DNA from: a virus
Direction: 5' to 3' (one strand)
IMG/VR virus record: IMGVR_UViG_3300009506_000005
Span: 49,770 to 113,769 of that record
DNA: 64,000 nt
Below the pieces are notes generated by a model, which was not told where the DNA came from, did no database searches, and worked only from the letters and a program-made list of their open reading frames with translations. Shown here in pieces: positions 1 to 42,217 of this stretch. Every line of letters begins with the position of its first letter. Position 1 is the stretch's first letter. The position numbers and the translations under genes are program-made.

Positions 1-174
1 GCTTCTGCGGGACGATGAAGGCGGTGCCCGGCGTGGAGGTTCCGAGGCTGGAGACGAGGACGGCCTTCGACAAGATAGTCCGCCAGGAGCGCGATAGCTA
101 CGCGGTGAGGAAGGCGCACATGCGCTCGATGAACACCCTGGCCGACGCCCTGAGGAACCCGAGGTGATGGAGCG

Positions 175-465
175 ATGGAGGAGAGTCAGGCAGCGGTTCG
201 AGAAGGTGGTGAGGGCGATGCTCTCCGTGGCCCTTGGCCATGTCCGAATTGTGGTGACGAACTGGGCATCTCGACTGTGGAAAAACGCGCGAAGGTGCTT
301 CGCCCTGGGGACAAGGACTTCGTCACTGTCGTTTATGCTTTCGCCCGGTGCACCGCGTGCAGGACGCGGATTGACGCAGCGGGAATCGGCCGCGAGGATG
401 CGGCGCAAGACCTCGCGCGAATCATACGTGCGAGGGGAGAGGTAAGGAACGATGGCAAAGGATAA
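175..465 (+). CDS. Zn-finger hypothetical protein (Lar-like CxxC..CxxC)
   Basis: PCPNCG...RCTAC motifs; overlaps next gene. Confidence 0.5.
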   Translation: MEESQAAVREGGEGDALRGPWPCPNCGDELGISTVEKRAKVLRPGDKDFVTVVYAFARCTACRTRIDAAGIGREDAAQDLARIIRARGEVRNDGKG

Positions 466-679: not shown

Positions 680-713
680 GGTGCTCGGCAAAGGTAAAGA
701 AAAGAGGTAAAGG

Positions 714-1145
714 ATGAGACTCGAATTCACGGGACACAGTGACGACGCCGTCCAGATCGAGCGCTACCGCTCGGGGAATGTGGACGAGGAGCCGGAGACG
801 GACGAGGCTTCGGCAATGGGCGAGGGCGCGTTCCAAGCGTCCTTCAACGTGCTCGGTCCGGGGAAGGTGTGCGGCGAGTGCGGACACGAGAGCGACGCGG
901 AGACGCTCGCGATCGTCTTCGCCCACTTCCTCCCGACCGGGTGTTGGTCTTTCTCGATCTCGCCCGTCGAGGAAGACAAGGCGCTTCCCGCGGACTGGAA
1001 GGTCACGACGATCCAGGGTCACGGCTACTCGACCGCGCTTGTGATCAACTCGGAGCACGCGCTCGGAGTGAGCAGCGGCAAGGGAGGGAAGAAGATCTTC
1101 TCGGTGCCGACCCCGAAAAGCGAGGCCGAAGAGGTGACCGAATGA
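714..1145 (+). CDS. hypothetical protein
   Basis: ORF with purine-rich leader; ATGA-coupled to next gene. Confidence 0.6.
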   Translation: MRLEFTGHSDDAVQIERYRSGNVDEEPETDEASAMGEGAFQASFNVLGPGKVCGECGHESDAETLAIVFAHFLPTGCWSFSISPVEEDKALPADWKVTTIQGHGYSTALVINSEHALGVSSGKGGKKIFSVPTPKSEAEEVTE

Positions 1146-1594
1146 AGGCCGCCGAATTCCTCCGCTCGTTCAAGTTCCGCGTGACCATTGACGGGCGCTT
1201 CGTCGGGATCTCTCGCGTCTCCGAAATCGAATATCTGATCGCGCGCAGCGGGAACGGCTACTGCAAACCGATCACGATCGAGTCCGCGCCGAAGGCGGGG
1301 ACGGGTGGACTCGCGGAGGCGCTCGGCTCTCGGCCGTGGGCGCGGCGTGACGTGACGCTCACCGAGAGCACGCGAGAGGGCGAGACCGGCCGCGTGATCC
1401 GTCTCCGCTCTTGCAAGCTCAAGGGCTACACGATCGCGGAGCATGACGCGATGGCGGACGGCGTGGTGATCGATCGCGTGAAGCTCCACCCGAAGCGGAT
1501 CGATATCGTGGCGGGGCCGGCGAAGTCCTACGTGAAGCCGCGGCCCGTCGCGAAGATCGAGCCGGGCCTCCCGCCTTCGGAGGTGTCGCCATGA
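1142..1594 (+). CDS. orphan T4 gp19-like tail tube paralogue
   Basis: FKFRVTIDG, PITIE, RRDVTL..REGE, C...HDAMADGVVID align by eye with the tube at 55022-55483. Confidence 0.6.
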   Translation: MKAAEFLRSFKFRVTIDGRFVGISRVSEIEYLIARSGNGYCKPITIESAPKAGTGGLAEALGSRPWARRDVTLTESTREGETGRVIRLRSCKLKGYTIAEHDAMADGVVIDRVKLHPKRIDIVAGPAKSYVKPRPVAKIEPGLPPSEVSP

Positions 1595-1887
1595 ACCCGG
1601 AGACCAATCGGTTCGAGCAGCTCCGCGAGTCAACCGAGGAAGAGACGGCGGAGATCAACAAGCGCATGGTGGAGAGCCTCAAGAACTTGGCGAAGGTTGC
1701 GTCCGGCTCCTTCCTCTTGCGCCCGGACGGCTCGCCCGTCCCCGGCCACTGGCCGATCCTTTCGGTGGGAACGAAGGTTGAGATCGAGGGGTACACGTTC
1801 CGGGTCGGCTACATCGGGGAGAGCGTGGTTCTCTTGGAGCCGATCGGGATCGTGGAGATCGGGAAGGGCGAAGAGGTGACGCCGTGA
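1591..1887 (+). CDS. hypothetical protein
   Basis: GGAGGTG SD, ATGA overlap. Confidence 0.6.
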   Translation: MNPETNRFEQLRESTEEETAEINKRMVESLKNLAKVASGSFLLRPDGSPVPGHWPILSVGTKVEIEGYTFRVGYIGESVVLLEPIGIVEIGKGEEVTP

Positions 1888-30301: not shown

Positions 30302-30598
30302 ATGAGACCTCAGCAAAAAGCACTTGATATCCCGGCCGCCATCGGCCAGGGGGCGCCCATCGATGTTTTCAACTTCCGGGATTCCTCGGTTCAGATCGGC
30401 GGCACGTTCGTGGCCACCATCCAGATCGAGGGGCGCCTGGACGATTCGATGCCGTGGAGCGCGATCGGTTCTCCCGTGACGGCTCCCGGGTTCGTGGACC
30501 TCCCCCACATCGTGAAGGACATCCGTGCGAATGTGACCGGATACACGTCCGGCACCCCCGAGGGCTTCTTCGCTGGGTTCAACGCGAGGACCGAGTAA
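30302..30598 (+). CDS. small beta-rich virion-associated protein
   Basis: between terL and portal; VQIGGTFVATIQIEG. Confidence 0.55.
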   Translation: MRPQQKALDIPAAIGQGAPIDVFNFRDSSVQIGGTFVATIQIEGRLDDSMPWSAIGSPVTAPGFVDLPHIVKDIRANVTGYTSGTPEGFFAGFNARTE

Positions 30599-32418
30599 TG
30601 AGCGATGCGCCTGACAGCGTGAAGCTCAAGGTCGTCGAGAGTGCTGCGGACGGCACGGAGAAGAACAGGGAGATCATCTTCAAGGTAGCTGGAGAGGGTG
30701 CCGGCCTGGAGAGCAACGCGGTGGTCTCCACTCAGGAGACGGAGAATGGGTTCCTCGCGCTCGGAGCAATCGACCCTCCATACCCGCCAGATTCTCTCTG
30801 CCGCATCTTCGAGCACTCAAATTCGCTGAGGCAGTGCGTGGACGCATACGTCACGAACATTGAGAGCTTTGGCTTCCGGCTCGATCCGTTGATCGACTTC
30901 GAGAGCAGTGAGGCCGATGAGCAGATCGCCGATGCGATCTGGTTGTCTCGCGGAGGTGGCAGCGATCGGCCGTCCGATCAGGAGGTTGCCGAGAAGAAGA
31001 AGGAGATGGTGGCCGAGGCCGTCATGGAGAAGGCCAGCCTTCTCCGCTTCTTCGGTCAGGTGGGACTCGACCTCAACCTCACGTCCCTGCGCAAGAGAAA
31101 GCGCGGAGACCAGGAGGTGCAGGGGAACGCGTACTGGGAGATCCTCAGGAGCAAGAGCGGGGAGCCGGCACGGTTCGTCCACGTTCCGGCGCAGACCGTC
31201 CGCTTGATGCCGCTCGATCCTCGCATAGTGACCGTCAGGGAGAAGGTGAGGTCCTCGGTCTTTGCCTACACGGAGAAGCCGGCGAGGAAGCGCTTCCGCA
31301 AGTACGTCCAGATGATCAACGGGATGCCCACCGTCTACTTCAAGCAGTTCGGCGATCCGCGCACCTACTCGAAGAAGACAGGGGATGAGATCAGAGATCC
31401 CGAGTCTCATCAATGGGACTCAGGAGATGGTCCGGCGACGGAGATCATCCACTTCGAGATCTACTCGCCGAGGAGCGCCTACGGCGTGCCGCGGTGGATC
31501 GGTGCTCTGCTTTCCGTCCTCGGTTCTCGCAGTGCCGAGGAGGTCAACTACTACTACTTCGAGAACAAGGCCGTTCCCCCTCTTGCCATCCTCGTGAGCG
31601 GGGGACGTCTGGCTGAGGAGGCGATCCCTCGTCTGGAAACGTTCATCAAGGAGAACCTCCAGGGCTCCACGAAATCATTCCACAAGATCATGATCCTGGA
31701 GGCTGAGGGGGAGAAGGGTGGCGGAACAGCCGGGAACGTGAAGATCGAGATCAAGCCCCTGACCGAGGCCATGATACAGGAGGAGCTGTTCTCGAAGTAC
31801 GATGAGCGGAACATCGACAAGGTGGGGGAGGCGTTCCGTCTTCCGCGCATTCTCCGCGGGCAGTCCAAGGACTTCAACCGCGCTACTAGCCTGAGCGCCT
31901 TGCGGTTCGGCGAGGAGCAGGTCTTCCAGCCGGAGCGTGACGAGTTCGATGCGTGGATCAACCGCGAGATCTTCCCCCTGCTCAACTCGCGCTACTGGAT
32001 TTTCCGGACGAACGCACCGCTCACCCGCGATCCAGAACGCATGACGGAAATGGTCGTGAAGCTCGTGGAGGTGGGTGTTCTGACTCCGAACGAGGGGCGC
32101 CTGCTCGCGGGAGACATCTTCAACAGGGACTTCCGGGAGATCCGCGAGGACTGGGGACGCCAGCCGTTGAAGATGACTCTTGCGGGGATCAAGGGAGGGA
32201 ACGGCCAGAAGGGTGCCGATGGCATGGCCCTCGACGTTGTTGGTGGAAACGATCTGGACAAGATGCGCGATGGAGATGGGCGGGAGACGGTCATGTTCAA
32301 GGTAGCGAATCTTCAGGCGCTCCGGGACCTCTGCGATCAGCGTCTATCGGACATCGACGATCATCTGCTTGCCCAGGATCTTGAGGCGTTCCCCGAGATG
32401 GACGAGCTGGAGGAGTAG
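30598..32418 (+). CDS. portal protein
   Basis: GNAYWEI, YGVPRW, YFEN.AVP, AFRLP..L, LTPNEGR. Confidence 0.92.
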   Translation: MSDAPDSVKLKVVESAADGTEKNREIIFKVAGEGAGLESNAVVSTQETENGFLALGAIDPPYPPDSLCRIFEHSNSLRQCVDAYVTNIESFGFRLDPLIDFESSEADEQIADAIWLSRGGGSDRPSDQEVAEKKKEMVAEAVMEKASLLRFFGQVGLDLNLTSLRKRKRGDQEVQGNAYWEILRSKSGEPARFVHVPAQTVRLMPLDPRIVTVREKVRSSVFAYTEKPARKRFRKYVQMINGMPTVYFKQFGDPRTYSKKTGDEIRDPESHQWDSGDGPATEIIHFEIYSPRSAYGVPRWIGALLSVLGSRSAEEVNYYYFENKAVPPLAILVSGGRLAEEAIPRLETFIKENLQGSTKSFHKIMILEAEGEKGGGTAGNVKIEIKPLTEAMIQEELFSKYDERNIDKVGEAFRLPRILRGQSKDFNRATSLSALRFGEEQVFQPERDEFDAWINREIFPLLNSRYWIFRTNAPLTRDPERMTEMVVKLVEVGVLTPNEGRLLAGDIFNRDFREIREDWGRQPLKMTLAGIKGGNGQKGADGMALDVVGGNDLDKMRDGDGRETVMFKVANLQALRDLCDQRLSDIDDHLLAQDLEAFPEMDELEE

Positions 32419-35012: not shown

Positions 35013-38000
35013 GTGGGCAAGAGAGAAGGGAACTATCGAGCGCCGACCGGGAAGGTCTCGGGTGGCAGGAAGCCGGCGGCGAAGCGCGAGGACGTCGAGG
35101 CGACGATCGAGCTTGGCGAGGAGTCCGCTACCGCAGTGCTATCAGCGCGTTCGCTCGCGCAGAAGTTCGCCGAGGTGGCCGCTGGGTTCGATGACGATGT
35201 GATCGATCCACTTCGCGAGTGCGAGGTGGGAGAGAACGCGGTGGAGATCCTGGAGATCCTTCCGCTCGTCTCGAAGAATCTGGCAGCCGAGTTCTCACGC
35301 CTCCAGGATGAAGGTGGCGATGGGGAAGTCCCGCAGGTGGATACGGGCGATCCGCTGGAGATCGGCGCCGCCCTTCTCTCTTGCTCAGCGAACGTCAGGA
35401 AGTCCCTGGAGGACGCCCCGCGGGACATCGTAGAGGCCGTGGACCAGGGCATCGATTCCCTGCGGGCCTTTCTCTCGTTGCCGGATCAGCTCGATGGAGA
35501 GGACCATGCGGCTGAGTTCTTCACGAAGGCTGACCGCATTCCGAAGCCGTTCCGCTCGCCGGGTGGAAAGGCGCAGCTCGTCAACGTTCTTCTGTCCAGG
35601 GTTCCCGAGCACAAGGTCTACGTGGAGCCCTACGCTGGCTCGGCCACGCTGTTCTGGGCGAAGAAGAAGGTGGAGAAGGAGGTGCTTTCTGACCTGAACG
35701 AGGGCGTCGTGGGGCTGTTCAAGTTCTTGCAGGAGGCCGGAGAGGCGGACTTCGAGTGGATGCGGAAGCAGATCTGGGGCTACGACGCGGTCAACTTCAA
35801 TAAGCTCAAGGAGAAGGAGAGCGGCTCCGCACGCTACAAGGCATATCGCTTCAAGTACCTGAACCTCTACTCCATGCGCGGGCGTGGCGAGACCATCGAT
35901 GATTCCCCGCGCTCTCGCGGTCAGACGGGTGCCCTGTTCCTGCGGAACCTGGAGCGCTACAAGGAGCGCCTCGAAAACGTTCGTGTCATCCACGGTGACG
36001 CCCTGGAGGTGATGAAGAAGTACGATCGCTCTGGCGTCTTCATGTACATCGATCCTCCCTGGCGTCCAGAGCAGGGTTCTCCCGAGTGGAAGGCCTACGA
36101 CCACGAGGCGTTCGAGAAGGCGGTCAGTGGACTGAAAGCGAACGCCTTGGTCTCCTACCAGGGGAAGCTCGTACTGGGAGATGGATGGCGGAAGCACAAG
36201 CACACGAGCGTGCTGGGTGGCATCTCTAAGGAGACCACGCAATCCCTCTACTGGAACTACAACTTCCGTGGCGTTGAAGCCAAGCGCGAAGGGACGTCCG
36301 GATGCGAATTCTGCGATGCTCTCGCGGCCGAAGCCTTCGTCTGGGATGGCGGCATCATCAAGTCGTGTCACGAGCACGAGAGCCAGGCGCGCGAGCTGAT
36401 CGAGAACGTGAACAAGTCCGAGGTCCTGGCCGTCCGGGATTGCGAGCTACCCGAGCAGGAGGAGGTGGCGAAGCTCTCCATCGATGAGATGAACCCGCGC
36501 AGCCTGCGAGAGGTCAGCGACAGGGAGCTGCTATCCCTCAACCGGCGCCTGCATCAACTGTATGGCAAGAACTTCGAGGGCAACGACAAGATCACGTCTG
36601 GAGACCTGAACCGAGAGGATCTGGTCAACGCCTACATCTTCGTCTCGAACGAGATGAAGACGCGGGAGATGGAGCTGAACGATACTTCCTTGGCGATCGA
36701 GGCGCGGACGCTCGCCAAGGAAGAGGGGAAGAAGGAGCTTGCTCCGGTACTCCCGGGATCATCCGGCGCGCATCCGCTGATCAAGATCGAGGAGGTGCTC
36801 CCGCACTTCAAGTCCTTCAAGATCCGCATGCCGTTCCTTTGGCTCGTTGGCTCGCTTGCGAACATGGGCAAGACGGAGAACGACATCGACCTCCTCGTGA
36901 AGGGGCCCTGCTCCGAGGAGCTGCTCCAGGTGCTCAAGTTCCGTCTCGGGCGCATGTTGCCGCCGGAGCTGAGCAAGCGCCTGTCGGTGATGGAAGACGA
37001 GCTGGGTGGCCCGTTCACCTCGCATGTGGAGCTCGCCGACCTCGTGGTGGAGATGAGGCCGGCGTTTGCGGTCAAGGAGATGGCGCTCGCCAAGCAGGAC
37101 GACCCGCTCCTGGACTTGCCGAAGGAGGCCGGGAAGAAGAAGGCCGTCTTCCAGTACCACGCACGTGGGTCAAGCTTGCATCTGGATCTCAGGATGGAGC
37201 TCGCCGACTTCCTCGTGGGCTGGACCATGGCCAACCAGCGCTCTGGTAAGGTGCCAGTGATTGAGACGATGGACGAGTTGAAGAGGATCGGCTCCTCGTT
37301 CTCGCCGGACGGTGACCAGTACACGAAGCCCTTCCGCTCGCCAGCGAGACTGGCTGCGTTCCCGAAGAGCAGGCAGCCGGAAGTCTGGCTGGGGATATCA
37401 GCCAGGCGGTTCGAGCCCGGCGAGGTAGGCGCCTCGCGGAACGAGTACGGCGTGATCGTGGCCGTGGATCGGCCCTCTGTCGAGTACGGTACCCAATCAA
37501 GCCGCTTCCACGAATACTTCTTCACTGGGAAGGACGCCGCCGTGCAGGGCATTCTCGCCTTCCGCCAGCTCGTGGGGAGGGGAAAGGCCATCAAGCTGGA
37601 GGGCGAGGGGGGCGATCCATTCGAGGAGGGGCGCCGCACGCCGGCTGGCCGCACCTTCTGGACCTCGATGCTCACCTCCTCGGCGCTACCCTCCGTCCTC
37701 AAGCGGCGCGCAGTGCACGAGGGCCGAATGCCGCCCGATGGGAAGAGCGCGATCCCCATCTCGCTGGAGAGGGTCACGCCCAAGGAGTTCCGCTACTGGG
37801 AGGCCAAGGGTAAGGAGGCACGCGAGATCCGCGATGCGCTGGTCTCCTCCCGCTTCTTCACCGAGCAGAACGTAGGCATCGTGGACGGCGAGTTCCGGCG
37901 CCTCGTCCAGAAGACCTACCTCTACACCGGCGACGGCTCTGATTTCACGTTCAAGGCCGAGTCCGAGCCATTCGCCTTGTCTTGGCAGAGGTGGAAGGGT

Positions 38001-39902
38001 CAGAGCGTTGTGAGGACCGGGCCCAGCCGCCAGGTGTGGCACCTGACAGTCGGTGGTCTCCCTGGCTGGAAGCTCCAGCGTGATCCCCTCGCGGGTGACG
38101 AGGTGACGGCCGTCGAGAAGCCGAAGGCCAACTCCGCGCTCTTCGAGCTCGAAGGTGATGTCGAGCCTGGAAAGGAGCTTGGCGGCGAGGTCCTGAACGA
38201 TACCAAGGCCACGCCCTCGGAGATCTCCATCGTCGATGAGGGCCGGGCGGAGATCATCGACAGGAAGCCCGGGCTCATCCGCCTGCGGTTCAGGGGCAAG
38301 AAGCTCCAGGGGATCTACACGCTGGAGGCCGAGGAGAAGGGATCGGAGATCTGGACGTTCGCCAAGGATGCCGAGGCAGAGAAGAGAGAGGAGGACGACC
38401 CCTGGAAGACGGGTGATGTGGAGTTGGCGGACATCGAGGACACGGAGAAGGCGATCCCCGTCCGTGGAGGGGTGCAGATCTGGGACCCTGAGAAAAAGGA
38501 CCCGAACGTTGACCGCGAGCAGCTGGAGCCACTGGCCATCTTTTCTCCGATGAAGCCGGCGAAGCGGTTCGATGACACGGCTGCGGCCGTCAAGGAGTGG
38601 GGCCATGGCGCCGCCATCGAGCACGGCGTGTTCGTGGAGCCCAAGGAGAACGGTTTTAGATTCAGCGTCCAGAAGAAGGGCGATCAGGTCTTCTCGTTCA
38701 CCGAGGACGAGAAGCGGGACTTGCTTCCGCTGCTTCCAACGGTGCGCGAGGCTCTGGAGAGAATCCCCGGGGAATGGATCCTGGACACCGAGTTCATGGA
38801 GGAGGAAGAGGGCGGTGGGTTTGTTCCGCGTCGTGACTTGGCGAGGTTCAGGGGGAAGGAGCCGCAGGACGACAAGCGCGTGCGCTTGAAGGTGGTTGAC
38901 CTGCTCTACCACAACGGCCGCAACTTGCTCGGACGCCCGTACCACGAGCGCCGCTCTGCCCTGCGTCGGTTCTTCGATGGGAAGAAGACGCTGGGACCGC
39001 TGGTCATCACGCCCACGAAGCTGGCGAAGAGCGCTGAGCAGCTGCAACGAGCGATCGCCTGGGCTCGCAAGGTTCCTGGGTCCGAGGGCGCCATGCTCAA
39101 GCTGTACGGATCCACTTACTCCCTCGGTGGCGAGAACTCGGCGTGGGCGAAGATCAAGGACTCGCGAGAGATTCGCGCCATCGTCTACGAGAGACATCCT
39201 GTCAAGGATTCGCCCGGGGTCTACAACTTCTTCGGCGCCGTGGGGCCCGTGCGCGAGGATGAGTGGAATGAGACTGTGGAGGTCGGAGGAAAGACCTACA
39301 CGCCGGTGGGGCGCACCTTCAACTCGAAGGAGGAGGCCGAGGTCGGAGATGTCATCCGCGTGGAGGCCACGGAGATCCTCGTTGACGCGAGTGGCGACAA
39401 GAAGTCACTGCGCTGGTTCACGCCCACGGTGATCGAACGGGTGGACACGAGACCAATGACGGCGGCCGATGTCGTAAGGCTGGCGAAGCCCGAGGAGATC
39501 AAGAAGATCGCGGACGCCATCCTCCAGCGCGAGATCCCCATCTTCAAGGCTGACGAAGAGCGGCTCGTCTACGGCGAGGTCCTCATCCCCGAGGAGGTGG
39601 ACGCGCAGAAAGAGATCTACAGCGAGGAGGAGGTGCGCCAGGCGGCCCACGGGTTCATGGAGAACTTCCAGAACCTCGGTGTCATGCACAAGGAGCTCGC
39701 GAACGGGCGCCTCAAGATCCTGGAGAGCTTCATCGCCCCGGTGGAGATGGAGATCGCTGGGAAGAAGATCAAGAAGGGCACATGGCTCCTCGCCGTCCGC
39801 GTGATTTCGGACAAGCTGTGGAAGCAGGTGAAGGACGGAAAATGGACCGGATTTTCTATCGGCGGATCGGCCGTTCGCGTGGCGGAAACCTCGGCAACTT
39901 GA
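35013..39902 (+). CDS. polyprotein: Dam/D12-type methylase - Zn finger - nucleotidyltransferase - LigD phosphoesterase-like x2 - ATP-dependent ligase - XkdF prohead protease
   Basis: PGGK/VEPYAGS/SDLN/DPPW; GS..DID; QYH..HLDLR; KENGFR/DTE/DLL/EGAMLK/WAKIK; ERLVYGEVLIP/MH/GFSIGG. Confidence 0.85.
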   Translation: MGKREGNYRAPTGKVSGGRKPAAKREDVEATIELGEESATAVLSARSLAQKFAEVAAGFDDDVIDPLRECEVGENAVEILEILPLVSKNLAAEFSRLQDEGGDGEVPQVDTGDPLEIGAALLSCSANVRKSLEDAPRDIVEAVDQGIDSLRAFLSLPDQLDGEDHAAEFFTKADRIPKPFRSPGGKAQLVNVLLSRVPEHKVYVEPYAGSATLFWAKKKVEKEVLSDLNEGVVGLFKFLQEAGEADFEWMRKQIWGYDAVNFNKLKEKESGSARYKAYRFKYLNLYSMRGRGETIDDSPRSRGQTGALFLRNLERYKERLENVRVIHGDALEVMKKYDRSGVFMYIDPPWRPEQGSPEWKAYDHEAFEKAVSGLKANALVSYQGKLVLGDGWRKHKHTSVLGGISKETTQSLYWNYNFRGVEAKREGTSGCEFCDALAAEAFVWDGGIIKSCHEHESQARELIENVNKSEVLAVRDCELPEQEEVAKLSIDEMNPRSLREVSDRELLSLNRRLHQLYGKNFEGNDKITSGDLNREDLVNAYIFVSNEMKTREMELNDTSLAIEARTLAKEEGKKELAPVLPGSSGAHPLIKIEEVLPHFKSFKIRMPFLWLVGSLANMGKTENDIDLLVKGPCSEELLQVLKFRLGRMLPPELSKRLSVMEDELGGPFTSHVELADLVVEMRPAFAVKEMALAKQDDPLLDLPKEAGKKKAVFQYHARGSSLHLDLRMELADFLVGWTMANQRSGKVPVIETMDELKRIGSSFSPDGDQYTKPFRSPARLAAFPKSRQPEVWLGISARRFEPGEVGASRNEYGVIVAVDRPSVEYGTQSSRFHEYFFTGKDAAVQGILAFRQLVGRGKAIKLEGEGGDPFEEGRRTPAGRTFWTSMLTSSALPSVLKRRAVHEGRMPPDGKSAIPISLERVTPKEFRYWEAKGKEAREIRDALVSSRFFTEQNVGIVDGEFRRLVQKTYLYTGDGSDFTFKAESEPFALSWQRWKGQSVVRTGPSRQVWHLTVGGLPGWKLQRDPLAGDEVTAVEKPKANSALFELEGDVEPGKELGGEVLNDTKATPSEISIVDEGRAEIIDRKPGLIRLRFRGKKLQGIYTLEAEEKGSEIWTFAKDAEAEKREEDDPWKTGDVELADIEDTEKAIPVRGGVQIWDPEKKDPNVDREQLEPLAIFSPMKPAKRFDDTAAAVKEWGHGAAIEHGVFVEPKENGFRFSVQKKGDQVFSFTEDEKRDLLPLLPTVREALERIPGEWILDTEFMEEEEGGGFVPRRDLARFRGKEPQDDKRVRLKVVDLLYHNGRNLLGRPYHERRSALRRFFDGKKTLGPLVITPTKLAKSAEQLQRAIAWARKVPGSEGAMLKLYGSTYSLGGENSAWAKIKDSREIRAIVYERHPVKDSPGVYNFFGAVGPVREDEWNETVEVGGKTYTPVGRTFNSKEEAEVGDVIRVEATEILVDASGDKKSLRWFTPTVIERVDTRPMTAADVVRLAKPEEIKKIADAILQREIPIFKADEERLVYGEVLIPEEVDAQKEIYSEEEVRQAAHGFMENFQNLGVMHKELANGRLKILESFIAPVEMEIAGKKIKKGTWLLAVRVISDKLWKQVKDGKWTGFSIGGSAVRVAETSAT

Positions 39903-39936
39903 CAAGCCCTACATTCAGGCGGCAAAATATCACCAA

Positions 39937-39966
39937 TTGACACGGGTATTTCGGAGCGGGTAGGAT
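39937..39966 (+). promoter_or_regulatory. promoter for scaffold-capsid genes
   Basis: TTGACA-N18-TAGGAT in a 200-bp intergenic gap. Confidence 0.55.
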
Positions 39967-40102
39967 CTAGGAAATCGCGCGACTTGGAAGGGGAACCCAA
40001 CGTGGCGCGGAAGTGAACAAGATGACTGCATCCTTGCAAAGTTCCCCATCCCAATCACACGGTCGGATCGGAGCGTTGCTACCTACCCACGGGGAGAGGT
40101 AA

Positions 40103-41212
40103 GTGGATTTTCTGGACCACTTGGCGAGCATCGAGAAGCAGGTCACGCGCCTGTTGGACATCGAGGTCAAGGAGGTCTCTGTTGTGGACCGTGCGGCCAA
40201 CAAGCGCCGCTTTCTCATCGTCAAAAGGGAGGACGACATGCCGGATCCCATCGGTAAAGAAGTGAAAGAAGACGGGCAGGGTAACCTCTCGACCGAGGAG
40301 GACAAGATGGAGGAGGAGGACGAGAAGAAGGCAGACGCCCCTCTTCACGCCAAGCTCGCCGGCGAGGCGATCGACTCCCTCATCATGAAGGTGACCGGCC
40401 TGCGGGAGAAGCTCACGAGCGGCATGGCCACTCTGGAGGAGATCAACGACCTGAGCAGCGCCTTCTGGCCGCTCATGGACTCCCTGCGCTCGGCTGCGGT
40501 GGTGATCGCCAAGGCCGACGTGGAGAAGGCCGACATGGAGATCCCGAAGCCCGTCAAGGAGGCTGTCCTGCGGACGGCCACCGAGGCGATGGAGCGCCTG
40601 CTCTCGGCTGTCAACGGTCTCAAGGAGGCCCAGACGAACGATGAGCAGTCCGACGCCCCGCTGCCCGAGGAGTACACCAAGGAGTTCAGCGCGATCGCCG
40701 GGCTGCTCTCCGGAATCTCCGAGAAGTACCCGTCGCCGAAGTCCGCCGCCTGCGGGGACAAGGAGAAGGCGAAGAAGGGCGACGCGGAGAAGTCCGATGC
40801 CATGGAGAAGGTCATCGACAAGCTCGATGCCATCTCCAAGAAGGTGGACAGCGCCCTCTCCAGCGTGAAGAAGGTGGACGAGGAGGAGGAGAAGAAGGGC
40901 GACTCCAAGGAGGAGAAGGGCGGCGAGGGCGAGGAGGAAGAGAAGCCGAAGGCAGAGGAAGGCAAGAAGCCCGAAGGCGACGGCGAGGCCAAGGAGGTGG
41001 AGAAGGCCCTGGCCAAGCGCGACAAGGAGATCACCGATCTTCGCGAGCAGGTCGCGAAGCAGGCGGAGAAGATCACCGCACTCGAAGAGGCGGATATCGC
41101 CCCCAACTCGTCAGCCCCCGAGGGCGTGGCGAAGATGGAGGAAGAGGATCCGTGCTGGCGAAGTGACATGGCGGACGAGTCCGAGGTGGACGCGGACGTT
41201 TCCTTCGATTAG
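40103..41212 (+). CDS. capsid scaffold protein with N-terminal protease segment
   Basis: EVSVVDRAAN; acidic helical body; internal SD + ATG at 40238; precedes MCP. Confidence 0.75.
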   Translation: MDFLDHLASIEKQVTRLLDIEVKEVSVVDRAANKRRFLIVKREDDMPDPIGKEVKEDGQGNLSTEEDKMEEEDEKKADAPLHAKLAGEAIDSLIMKVTGLREKLTSGMATLEEINDLSSAFWPLMDSLRSAAVVIAKADVEKADMEIPKPVKEAVLRTATEAMERLLSAVNGLKEAQTNDEQSDAPLPEEYTKEFSAIAGLLSGISEKYPSPKSAACGDKEKAKKGDAEKSDAMEKVIDKLDAISKKVDSALSSVKKVDEEEEKKGDSKEEKGGEGEEEEKPKAEEGKKPEGDGEAKEVEKALAKRDKEITDLREQVAKQAEKITALEEADIAPNSSAPEGVAKMEEEDPCWRSDMADESEVDADVSFD

Positions 41213-41281
41213 CGAGCGGACGAGGTAAAGGTCAAGAGAGACGATCAACAGAGCGAACAACTAGAAAGACGGAGGAAACAA

Positions 41282-42217
41282 ATGAACGACAACCGCTCGA
41301 TCATCGAAAAAGCGGACCTCGCCGTAAGCGATCTGATCTCGGGAGGGGGCTATCTCCAACCGGCACAGGCGGCGAAGTTCATTCGGCTCTTGATCAAGGA
41401 GAGCTCGGTCATGAACATGGCGTCGGTCAAGCCGATGAAGGCCCCGAAGGAGCTGATCGAGAAGATCCGCTTCGGTTCCCGGGTCCTGCGCGCTGGCACC
41501 GAGGCCGTGGCGCTTCCGGTGGCGGACCGGGTGAAGCCGGACCTCACCAAGACGGAGCTGGACGCCAAGCTGTTCAAGGCGGAGACGCGGATCAGCTACG
41601 AGGCGCTGGAGGACTCCATCGAGAGGGGCCAGCTCAAGAACACGATCATGCAGGAGCTCGGCAAGGCCGTCGCCCGGGACATGGACGAGGTGATCGTGAA
41701 CGGCGACACCGCGAGCGCCGACACCTTCCTCGCGCAGCTCGACGGCCTGCTCAAGCAGACCACGAGCAACGTGACGGACGCCCTGATCGCCCCGCTGGAC
41801 AAGGACATCCTGCGGGACATGCTCAAGGCGATGCCGAGCGAGTGGCTCCGCGACAAGAAGGCGATGCGGTTCATCACCTCCGTGGACGCCCTGCTCGACT
41901 ACCGCAACACGCTCGCGGACCGCGAGACCGTGGCCGGGGACCGGTGGCTCACCGAGGACGTGCCGATCATGTACTCCGGTGTGCCGCTCGTGGACGCGCC
42001 GCTCTTCCCGGAGAACCTCGGCGCGGGGAGCAACGAGACGAACGTCCTGCTCTCCGACCCGAAGAACATCCAGGTCGGCATCTGGCGGCAGATCCGCCTG
42101 GAGACGCAGAAGGACGCCCCGGCCGGCGTGCTCATCATCGTGGCGACCCTCCGCTTCGACGTGAAGTGGGTCGAGGAGACCGCCGCGGTGAAGTGCATCA
42201 AGGTCAAGGTGGCCTAG
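41282..42217 (+). CDS. major capsid protein (HK97 fold)
   Basis: [28 protein letters not shown]; position. Confidence 0.92.

Follow-up and report, generated by a model that had tools for sequence, protein, structure and literature searches.

A candidate lysine-directed maturation signal in the head proteins of an uncultured phage with an XkdF-type protease

Comparison with described head-maturation systems

T4, phiKZ-like phages and HK97 are established examples of one protease that uses a single motif in capsid, scaffold and internal proteins. In HK97 the serine protease gp4 (MEROPS S78) is encoded between the portal and capsid genes, and the capsid protein gp5, a member of PF05065, loses its delta domain after F-N-K103/S104 (here and below the slash marks a cut or candidate cut); the cleaved scaffold domain comprises 102 residues (PMC12749128). 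T4 gp21 (L/I-x-E; IPI-III and Alt) and the proteases gp175 of phiKZ and gp245 of SPN3US (S/A/G-x-E) likewise act on capsid, scaffold and internal 'ejection' proteins through one short consensus. Cutting takes place inside the prohead, and the fragments stay in the head and then enter the host. Processing in SPN3US has been described (PMC10052503).

A different precedent is given by the phage polyvalent proteins (Iyer, Burroughs, Anand, de Souza, Aravind 2017; PMC5512222), in which methylase, ligase and repair modules are joined in one virion-associated protein encoded among head genes. Release of the units by an embedded peptidase has been proposed, the processing being assigned to zincin-like MPTase domains; that study does not mention XkdF and proposes no cleavage motif (PMC5512222). 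Capsids homologous to the one described below, at 24-39% identity, include protein E of the Natrialba virus PhiCh1 and XkdG of PBSX, which are accompanied by an XkdF protease and carry an N-terminal ..I-x-E/R-K/.. sequence. Klein and co-workers reportedly found in 2000 that PhiCh1 protein E is processed during maturation. A mapped cleavage site or described specificity was not found in the literature searched for the XkdF/XkdG family.

The window analysed here is a stretch of 64,000 nucleotides from an uncultured phage of 114 kb, known solely as a metagenome contig. As in HK97, the serine protease gene lies between those of the portal and the capsid, the capsid protein falls in PF05065, and a cut is predicted at a similar offset to the capsid domain start, with Lys at P1, a hydrophobic residue at P3 and a small one at P1'. 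Whereas HK97 has its scaffold domain fused to the capsid protein, this locus has a separate scaffold protein and a capsid leader of 10 residues; its protease is of the XkdF subfamily (PF14550), with 1500 residues of cargo N-terminal to it, and lacks the EVS.V strand, which lies on the scaffold instead. In contrast to T4, phiKZ and SPN3US, P1 is Lys instead of Glu, the cargo is fused to the protease instead of bearing a removable targeting peptide, and the sites are predicted from sequence where those of the other phages are proven by mass spectrometry; the proposed fate of the fragments is the same. The cargo resembles the polyvalent proteins, except that the peptidase is the prohead protease itself, XkdF and not MPTase. 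Since XkdF is the sole peptidase in the giant protein, in which neither Pfam nor PHROGs matched any metallopeptidase family, we regard the protein as a variant of the polyvalent theme. In PhiCh1 and PBSX, the protease lacks a large cargo.

The best explanation as a whole, which we consider somewhat probable, is that the XkdF protease cuts after Lys in the head proteins; each cut, the enzyme's specificity, its activation in trans and fragment delivery are all inferences. The enzyme, of putative assemblin fold, would favour Lys at P1 with an aliphatic or aromatic P3 residue; P1' would preferably be small (Ala, also Ser, Thr or Gly) and P2' often acidic (Asp or Glu). Because the idea of one protease with one motif is familiar, the advance would remain incremental until cleavage has been measured. 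Should the code be real, it would provide a testable substrate rule for XkdF-type proteases, and would make the mature virion proteome and the delivered enzymes readable from sequence for a very large set of uncultured phages, and for archaeal viruses that share this capsid and protease. It would also mean that polyvalent cargo can be loaded by fusion to a protease and released by that same protease.

Table 1. Head proteins, protease domain and lysine motifs in the window (motif residues numbered within each protein; L003, closest homologue of the giant protein)
Feature	Position	Strand	Remarks
Polyvalent head protein, 1629 aa	35013..39902	+	Pfam and PHROG matches; AF2 model with Foldseek
K172/A173 (FFTK/AD), strict motif	35526..35531	+	6-10 residues ahead of methylase module
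K424 (VEAK/RE)	36282..36284	+	downstream of methylase end (416); P3 = E, off rule
K487 (EVAK/LS), candidate site	36471..36473	+	kept in L003; low-confidence AF2 coil
K569 (TLAK/EE), candidate site	36717..36719	+	end of predicted helix, then ~20 residues of coil; not kept in L003
K694 (ALAK/QD)	37092..37094	+	start of phosphoesterase-like module
K981/A982 (FTFK/AE)	37953..37958	+	between two confidently folded modules; P3 = T
K1146/A1147 (DTEK/AI)	38448..38453	+	acidic low-confidence linker ahead of ligase; P3 = T
K1512/A1513 (PIFK/AD), strict motif	39546..39551	+	directly ahead of protease fold; candidate cut
XkdF-type serine protease domain (His1559, Ser1615)	39546..39881	+	PF14550 Peptidase_S78_2, residues 1512-1623
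Scaffold-like protein, 369 aa	40103..41212	+	
Scaffold K41 (FLIVK/RE), Lys closing motif A	40223..40225	+	invariant in 49 sequences and all 60 aligned scaffolds
Scaffold K137/A (VIAK/AD) and K142/A (DVEK/AD), both strict	40511..40531	+	
Scaffold K301/A (EVEK/AL)	41003..41008	+	ahead of conserved C-terminal helix
Major capsid protein, XkdG-like PF05065 member	41282..42217	+	
Capsid K10/A11 (IIEK/AD)	41309..41314	+	best-supported predicted maturation cut

The giant cargo protein and its protease domain

The giant protein, encoded among virion genes, joins several unrelated enzymatic domains in a single chain. An N-terminal region is followed by a D12 N6-adenine DNA methylase (residues 183-383), modules without assignment (425-694), one or more LigD 3'-phosphoesterase-like folds (~699-1119), an ATP-dependent DNA ligase (1185-1382) with its C-terminal part and, last, the XkdF protease. 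Module edges were defined by the AF2 model and by BLAST alignments with relatives whose architectures differ. The initial annotation had placed its lysines between recognisable domains. Pfam finds none within residues 425-1146, and the isolated segments 1-175, 425-490, 488-570, 570-695, 695-985 and 985-1150 matched zero families; the LigD-phosphoesterase-like modules are nevertheless recognised by fold search, Foldseek with the AF2 model matching LigD phosphoesterases. Model confidence is low for residues 400-692, which include K424, K487 and K569.

A prohead protease, in line with the protease postulated in the initial annotation, is present as the C-terminal domain. It matches PF14550 at 102.3 bits (cut-off 24), and its His (..MH..) and Ser (G-F-S-I-G-G) are invariant in 50 aligned relatives. 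The AF2 model of the domain has a pLDDT of 76.6, with weak active-site loops. In a VIA-align search of 48,161 chains, the best fold match was T4 gp21 (rmsd 3.7 Å over 98 residues; Z 6.7, which is below 8 and not decisive), followed by the VZV protease (Z 4.2). Foldseek with the same model returned nothing at E <= 0.001, T4 gp21 being weakly present, and no relatives came up when PDB sequences were searched with the capsid, its profile and the protease domain. The protease gene lies between the portal/MuF and scaffold/capsid genes, an order that is identical in all 70+ related loci.

Cutting by a host or other trypsin-like protease, or cutting only after injection, instead of by the XkdF domain in the procapsid, seems to us very improbable. 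It has a precedent in the staphylococcal phage 80alpha, whose capsid and scaffold leaders are trimmed by a host protease, and no computed result ties the motif directly to the XkdF active site. Against it, the protease shares a chain with the cargo and has the scaffold as its predicted binding partner; moreover, the motif co-occurs with XkdF proteases in viruses whose bacterial and archaeal hosts differ widely, which points to an enzyme encoded by the virus.

Enrichment of lysine motifs in head proteins

Two forms of the motif were counted: a loose form, hydrophobic-x-K, taken as [ILVFM]xK, and a strict form, [ILVFM]-x-K/A-[DE]. All the motifs listed in the initial annotation occur at the residues named, eight in the giant protein, three in the scaffold and one in the capsid, but its hydrophobic-x-K rule proved too loose a description, and K424, K981 and K1146 (P3 = E, T and T), three of the eight sites in the giant protein, fall outside it. 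The enrichment in head over tail proteins that it named as a check holds for the strict form and fails for the loose form in the giant protein. The latter has 38 loose sites against 32.5 expected, a chance level. The giant protein, scaffold and capsid together contain six strict sites against 0.88-0.97 in shuffles, a number reached in 0 of 300 (P about 0.0015 or less); the strict form was defined after inspection of these same proteins, so that P-values within the window are optimistic. One further strict site occurs in the portal/MuF/144-aa group, in the MuF-like head protein. The 22 connector and tail proteins encoded downstream contain no strict site, and the remaining genome has four against 4.1 expected. 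An R-D-x-x-G-[KR]-F junction tag is absent from this genome.

Similar trends are seen in 80 related viral loci, whose counts are not independent, the loci being of common ancestry. Observed-to-expected ratios for the strict motif are 3.8 in XkdF-cargo proteins, 2.0 in scaffolds, 2.1 in upstream head genes and 0.7 in downstream (tail) genes; patterns in which R or E replaces K are depleted everywhere. In an unbiased scan of every Lys, I/L/V at P3 is enriched 1.7-1.8-fold in cargo and scaffold proteins and shows no enrichment in tail proteins (0.88). Around E, D and Q the corresponding values are 1.0-1.27, and around R enrichment is confined to scaffolds (1.44). The P3 preference persists in representatives of the cargo clusters (55 against 31.9), of which single-linkage clustering gave four; loose-motif enrichment in scaffolds is weak at the cluster level (1.22), as it is in head-internal proteins overall.

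These counts bear on the possibility that the motif is structural and is not cut, the capsid ..I-x-K-A-D.., the hydrophobic-x-hydrophobic-K ahead of XkdF and the scaffold FLIVK being strands or contacts in the assembly of capsid, scaffold and protease, and the enrichment stemming from common ancestry and from internal proteins being amphipathic and Lys-rich. Head proteins are indeed rich in Lys (8.4% against 4.7%). However, the six-fold excess of the strict motif in the three head proteins persists in shuffles that keep composition, and the P3 enrichment is strongest around Lys, weaker for R, absent for E, D and Q and limited to one position. A prohead protease must also have substrates. We judge a purely structural role improbable. 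Hydrophobic-x-K, usually followed by Ala and an acidic residue, is probably a signal for the head-maturation protease in the capsid, scaffold and giant protein, with only some of the listed sites standing above chance; a Lys-specific prohead-protease code is plausible and partly supported.

Candidate sites in capsid, scaffold and cargo

The most likely real sites are capsid K10/A11, scaffold K142 and K137, and K1512 of the giant protein. In 48 relatives of the capsid protein, K10 and A11 are invariant and Asp12 is present in 90% or more, within a near-invariant consensus NR[TS]-[ILV]-[LI]-x-K-A-D, and the leader ahead of it is variable in length and sequence. A basic residue at this position recurs in capsids of 24-39% identity from Vibrio, Bacillus, Clostridium, Streptomyces, Rhizobium, Pseudomonas, Methanobacterium and Natrialba viruses. 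From Pfam coordinates, K10/A11 lies 11 residues upstream of the first aligned PF05065 position, compared with nine for F-N-K103/S104 of HK97; hhalign of the low-diversity capsid alignment with HK97 gp5 gave no useful match (probability 0.4). A cut here would remove the 10-residue leader as HK97 loses its delta domain. Support for a structural role comes from the N-arm downstream of K10, which is conserved as strongly as the residues upstream, so that the scissile bond cannot be picked out by conservation. A further strict site, K99 (LFK/AE), is invariant and lies inside the fold, where a cut is unlikely, and sequence alone therefore cannot decide cutting. On the other side, the homologous HK97 position is a proven cut after Lys, and the leader varies freely in length, as a propeptide would.

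In the scaffold, K142 lies just ahead of the conserved core (IPKPVK..), and hydrophobic-x-K is kept there in relatives that share the start of the core. The evidence for K41 and K301 makes these possibly real sites: K41, which closes the N-terminal motif A (..RLLDIEVKEVSVVDRAANKRRFLIVK41), has R or S at P1' and not Ala, and about one in three of 60 related scaffolds has [VIL]-x-K at the position of K301. Cuts at K142 and K137, and possibly at K41 and K301, would dismantle the scaffold.

The N-terminal motif of the scaffold contains the EVS.V strand that is found in HK97-type enzymes and is missing from the XkdF domain. In the predicted complex, scaffold residues 13-30 lie on the protease around the Ser and His loops, with an ipSAE of 0.83 compared with 0.00 for the best of three controls; 58 of 80 solved complexes and two of 110 mismatched pairs reached the mark applied to this score, counts that hold only roughly here because the present prediction used our own alignments. 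Contact agreement between runs was at least 63%, and partner pLDDT at least 48. Likeness to one-chain HK97-type folds may account for this result. Residues 13-30 and not K41 are placed at the protease, as an element of the fold and not as a substrate, which again suits a structural role, and no Lys site was seen bound as substrate. The model predicts that the XkdF protease is completed by the N-terminal strand of the scaffold. With the completing strand on the scaffold, the enzyme would be both tethered to and completed by it, and we propose that it would be active only inside the procapsid.

For the giant protein, the initial annotation was right that many of its lysines sit at domain borders: K172, K694, K981, K1146 and K1512 coincide with independently defined module edges, FFTK172-AD preceding the methylase and EAK424 following its end as described. 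Conservation gave a divided answer, K10/A11 being invariant in the capsid relatives and the eight sites of the giant protein remaining at background in L003 (62% identity), in which about half are kept, no more than this identity predicts. K1512, where a cut would free the protease from the cargo, is the first residue matched by the XkdF Pfam profile and lies in coil in the AF2 model. Of 68 related XkdF proteins, ~90% have a hydrophobic-(x)-hydrophobic-K, whose distance from the ER.V.G strand varies. The motif is also found ahead of the fold in cargo-less XkdF proteins (SIO-2, L338C, Drs3) and forms part of the family profile; its conservation thus needs no cleavage, a further point for a structural role.

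The remaining lysines differ in strength. K172 and K981 are probable sites. The methylase module begins at 178-182 by BLAST in 40 relatives; in relatives, [VI]-x-K/T immediately precedes methylase modules, and L003 has R/A at K172. K981 sits in a pLDDT dip (978-980), between module ends at 964-972 and the next start at 987, and L003 has TPTK/AL one residue off. K694 and K1146 are possible sites: around the former, BLAST module starts fall at 691-699, the confident AF2 fold begins at ~699 and L003 reads RLQK/AD, and at the latter the ligase alignment of one relative begins exactly, the site not being kept in L003. K424, K487 and K569 are indistinguishable from background lysines; L003 lacks K424 at the same column, and relatives have V/T-x-K/A-[DEL] a few residues past the C-terminal '..NY' motif of the methylase.

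Processing may have been minimal, with only the capsid leader trimmed and the scaffold degraded, the 1629-aa protein being packaged whole or minus its protease domain and the internal border lysines being ordinary linker residues picked by eye. We think this unlikely, although several results speak for it. Besides the chance-level loose count, the three off-rule sites and the background conservation in L003, a Lys lies within 15 residues upstream of 73% of positions in the giant protein, and the loose motif is no denser at module junctions in relatives (1.03-fold). The virion RNA polymerase of phage N4 and some plasmid polyvalent proteins are moreover delivered unprocessed (PMC5512222). On the other hand, a K-A dipeptide precedes four of the ~7 module starts, compared with 11% of positions having one within 15 residues upstream, and the strict motif, besides its 3.8-fold excess in cargo of relatives with unrelated architectures, is 2.15-fold denser just upstream of their module starts. 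The position of K981 matches exactly the dip that separates two confident folds, and in relatives [VI]-x-K/[TA] stands on either side of methylase modules.

Under the preferred reading, that XkdF cuts after Lys in head proteins, the methylase, the phosphoesterase-like modules and the ligase would stay in the head as domain-sized fragments and enter the host with the DNA. The most extended form of this reading is a split Lys-specific protease, whose His and Ser belong to the cargo protein and whose completing strand belongs to the scaffold; it would load a DNA methylation and end-repair polyprotein into the procapsid and then cut coded linkers to give separate injected enzymes, the hydrophobic-x-K code being common to bacterial and archaeal viruses of XkdG/XkdF type; we put this forward as a tentative and rather doubtful proposal. 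The cargo is variable in size among relatives, ranging from 171 to 1758 aa.

Head genes and the cargo protein

The window makes up the right-hand 64 kb of one contig of 113,769 bp; uncultured viral contigs of ~100 kb match it best. Read from its first start, the portal ORF carries an odd Arg/His-rich extension of 48 residues; the protein probably begins at an ATG near residue 49 (MSDAPDSVK..). The 144-aa ORF is composed almost wholly of Lys, Glu, Asp and Gly; a family match was sought for it and none was found, and its product may be an internal head protein.

Head module of the window and parts of the giant (cargo) protein; arrows in the text mark predicted cuts and, in HK97, a proven one
Feature	Window position	Giant protein residues	Strand	Family or remark
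Portal	30454-32418		+	PF04860
Portal N-terminal extension	30454-30600			
MuF-like protein, 699 aa	32428-34527		+	
Lys/Glu/Asp/Gly-rich ORF, 144 aa	34569-35003		+	between MuF-like and giant genes
Giant protein, 1629 aa	35013-39902		+	
Conserved N-terminus	35013-35080	1-22		
D12-class N6-adenine methylase		183-383		
Two confidently modelled modules	37107-38369	~699-1119		
ATP-dependent DNA ligase domain		1185-1382		
Stretch missing in L003-L005	38499-39149	~1163-1379		
XkdF/Peptidase_S78_2 domain		1512-1623		very end of protein; 102 bits against a cut-off of 24
XkdF end and scaffold start	39546-40240			
Tandem promoters	39899-39966			
Scaffold-like protein, 369 aa	40103-41212		+	
Capsid protein, XkdG-like, 311 aa	41282-42217		+	PF05065

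The two modules preceding the ligase are not recognised by Pfam. In an AlphaFold model of giant residues 400–1200, a confident fold extends from ~699 to 1119, with Foldseek matches to LigD 3'-phosphoesterase domains (E 1e-6 to 1e-4; target TM 0.74–0.78), a modelled likeness which, together with the ligase, is suggestive of a DNA end-repair kit. A stretch with most of the ligase nucleotidyl-transferase domain is missing in the closest relatives (L003–L005, 1428 aa), where the downstream part is kept; by sequence comparison we regard this as a recent module gain or loss inside the polyprotein. Many relatives (L010, L013–L018, L025 and other loci, the 727-aa family) have two tandem methylase modules before the protease, with ..NY-x(3-4)-K↓A-[DEL] after each. 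At its N-terminus the giant protein has a segment (..R-E-x-x-x-R-A-x-T-G-x-V-x-G-G-R-K-P-A..) that is strongly conserved with the closest homologue, L003, although its flanks diverge; this segment may serve as a leader or in targeting. This genome has no R-D-x-x-G-[KR]-F tag.

Lysine motifs and module borders

The initial annotation proposed that a protease cutting after hydrophobic-x-K processes the giant protein, scaffold and capsid and frees individual enzymes. The motifs that it listed are all at the residues it gave, and their relation to domain borders was examined in two independent ways. Comparing the giant protein by BLAST with cargo proteins from 70 relatives of different architecture gave module starts at 178–182 (40 relatives), 691–699 and 987, the start of one relative's ligase part at exactly 1146, and module ends at 416, 964–972 and 1114–1118. 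In the AlphaFold2 model of residues 400–1200, confident folds begin at ~699, pLDDT dips at 978–980, directly before K981, and confidence drops after ~1126. We therefore conclude that K172, K694, K981, K1146 and K1512 are at real module edges. K424 is just past the methylase end, and K487 and K569 are in predicted coil where the model is not good enough for a judgement.

The hydrophobic-x-K rule as written does not rise above chance in the giant protein, where [ILVFM]-x-K occurs 38 times against 32.5 expected, and K424, K981 and K1146 do not obey it, having E, T and T respectively two residues before the Lys (P3). The protein contains 123 lysines, and 73% of its positions have a Lys no more than 15 residues upstream. 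About half of the eight giant-protein sites are kept in the closest homologue, as 62% identity predicts.

A strict form, [ILVFM]-x-K-A-[DE], does rise above chance. It is found six times in the giant protein, scaffold and capsid (giant K172 and K1512, scaffold K137 and K142, capsid K10 and K99) against 0.9–1.0 in composition-keeping shuffles, not at all in 22 downstream connector and tail proteins (0.96 expected) and four times in the rest of the genome (4.1 expected); the portal, MuF-like and 144-aa group has one further site, in the MuF-like head protein. Because the strict motif was defined after these proteins had been seen, it was retested on 80 related viral loci, whose counts are not independent events because the loci share ancestry. 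Observed/expected ratios there are 3.8 for XkdF-cargo proteins, 2.0 for scaffolds, 2.1 for head genes upstream of the protease and 0.7 for downstream genes. Several of the upstream matches are in genes immediately before the protease gene, and the pattern is depleted in every class when Arg or Glu replaces Lys.

When no motif is assumed, I/L/V at P3 of Lys is the sole position that stands out, enriched 1.7–1.8-fold in cargo and scaffold proteins and not in tail proteins (0.88); around E, D and Q there is no enrichment (1.0–1.27), and around R it is seen only in scaffolds (1.44). With one representative per cluster the cargo signal stays, at 55 against 31.9, and that of the scaffolds weakens to 1.22. 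The density of the strict motif near BLAST-defined module starts in relatives is raised 2.15-fold, against 1.03 for the loose motif. Methylase modules of relatives have [VI]-x-K↓T-I-W-G-S-P.. before them and V/T-x-K↓A-[DEL] a few residues past their '..NY' end.

We lean towards a reading in which the XkdF protease cuts after Lys with a hydrophobic P3 and a small following residue (P1'): in this way it would take the leader off the capsid protein, break down the scaffold and sever the cargo protein at some linkers. The best candidate sites in the cargo protein are K1512, K172 and K981, with K694 and K1146 possible; K424, K487 and K569 are indistinguishable from background lysines. The main rival, that only capsid and scaffold are processed and the cargo protein stays whole, is appreciably less probable. 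A purely structural role for the motif, which the pattern at K1512 would suit, is unlikely and ranks below the main rival; a non-viral protease acting at these sites is very improbable. At K1512 a phi-x-phi-K before the XkdF fold, coil in the model, is kept in ~90% of relatives; it belongs to the Pfam profile and also occurs in XkdF proteins with only 6–13 preceding residues, so that its conservation needs no cleavage.

The predicted capsid site and known processing systems

Among 120 capsid homologues (63–83% identity), the leader before 'NR' varies in length and sequence and is followed by an almost fixed NR[TS]-[ILV]-[LI]-x-K-A-D-[LM]-A-L; K10 and A11 do not vary across a 48-sequence alignment, and N-arm conservation extends to both sides of K10, so that it does not pick out the bond to be cut. 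In distant XkdG-like capsids the corresponding residue is still basic: IIQK↓ADL in Vibrio SIO-2, LIRK↓AEM in Bacillus PBP180, KINK↓AVF in Clostridium CPD4, LIEK↓VIR in Streptomyces Coruscant, VANK↓ASA in Methanobacterium Drs3, ITEK↓NAL in Natrialba PhiCh1, IVQR↓ADL in Rhizobium L338C and MKKR↓ADL in Pseudomonas UF_RH6. The title of Klein et al. 2000 reports that PhiCh1 protein E is processed.

In the Pfam alignments, position 2 of the PF05065 profile corresponds to capsid residue 22 in this phage and residue 113 in HK97 gp5. The HK97 scaffold domain of 102 residues is cleaved off (PMC12749128), which therefore puts the cut after F-N-K103, before S104. K103↓S104 precedes the PF05065 start by 9 residues and the predicted K10↓A11 by 11, and this match in aligned position to a proven cut (P1 Lys, hydrophobic P3, small P1') is the strongest single argument. 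Capsid K99, also strict and invariant, is inside the fold, and accessibility must therefore matter besides sequence.

T4 gp21 cuts at L/I-x-E, and the processing logic proposed here is like that of gp21 and of HK97 gp4. It is also like that of the phiKZ/SPN3US proteases, with their S/A/G-x-E sites (PMC10052503). In the paper on polyvalent proteins, processing falls to metallopeptidase domains and XkdF goes unmentioned (PMC5512222). One-motif processing, already known from T4, phiKZ/SPN3US and HK97, would here be combined with a polyvalent cargo.

The protease domain and its predicted scaffold partner

The XkdF domain comes last in its protein (171 to 1758 residues) in every relative, and the scaffold gene and then the capsid gene follow. 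Neither His1559 nor Ser1615 varies. The modelled domain (pLDDT 76.6, weak active-site loops) has as its closest fold the T4 prohead protease gp21 (Z 6.7, rmsd 3.7 Å, 98 residues), a likeness that is suggestive, not decisive, and next the herpesvirus proteases (Z 4.2 and 3.1).

The XkdF domain stops a few residues past G-F-S-I-G-G, and the scaffold begins with an invariant ..RL.D..V.EVS.VDR.AN...FL.VK. In HK97-type proteases the EVS.V..AN strand is on the same chain, whereas here it opens the scaffold gene; in PBSX-like and Clostridium phages it precedes the XkdF domain, in PhiCh1 gpD it follows the catalytic serine, and in Vibrio SIO-2 and the window's clade the scaffold carries it. Complex prediction places scaffold residues 13–30 against residues 139–155 (serine loop) and 83–88 (histidine loop) of a 158-residue protease construct, residue 1 of which is giant residue 1472. 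The ipSAE is 0.83, against 0.00 for the best of three controls. Of 80 solved complexes 58 reach that mark, as do 2 of 110 mismatched pairs; because own alignments were used, these counts apply only approximately. Runs share at least 63% of contacts, with partner pLDDT of at least 48. The prediction supports binding of this scaffold segment to the protease and fits an enzyme tethered to, and completed by, the scaffold; its pass may rest on likeness to the one-chain HK97-type proteases. None of the Lys sites was placed in the protease active site by the complex prediction.

Within the scaffold, K41 is invariant and followed by R or S, K142 is immediately before the conserved core, and K301 is immediately before the C-terminal helix, where some of the relatives retain [VIL]-x-K. 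Two tandem sigma-70-like promoters (TTGACA-N18-CAAAAT and TTGACA-N18-TAGGAT), both conserved in L003, lie in the 200-nt gap that separates the giant gene from the scaffold gene and would permit an excess of scaffold and capsid over the cargo-protease.
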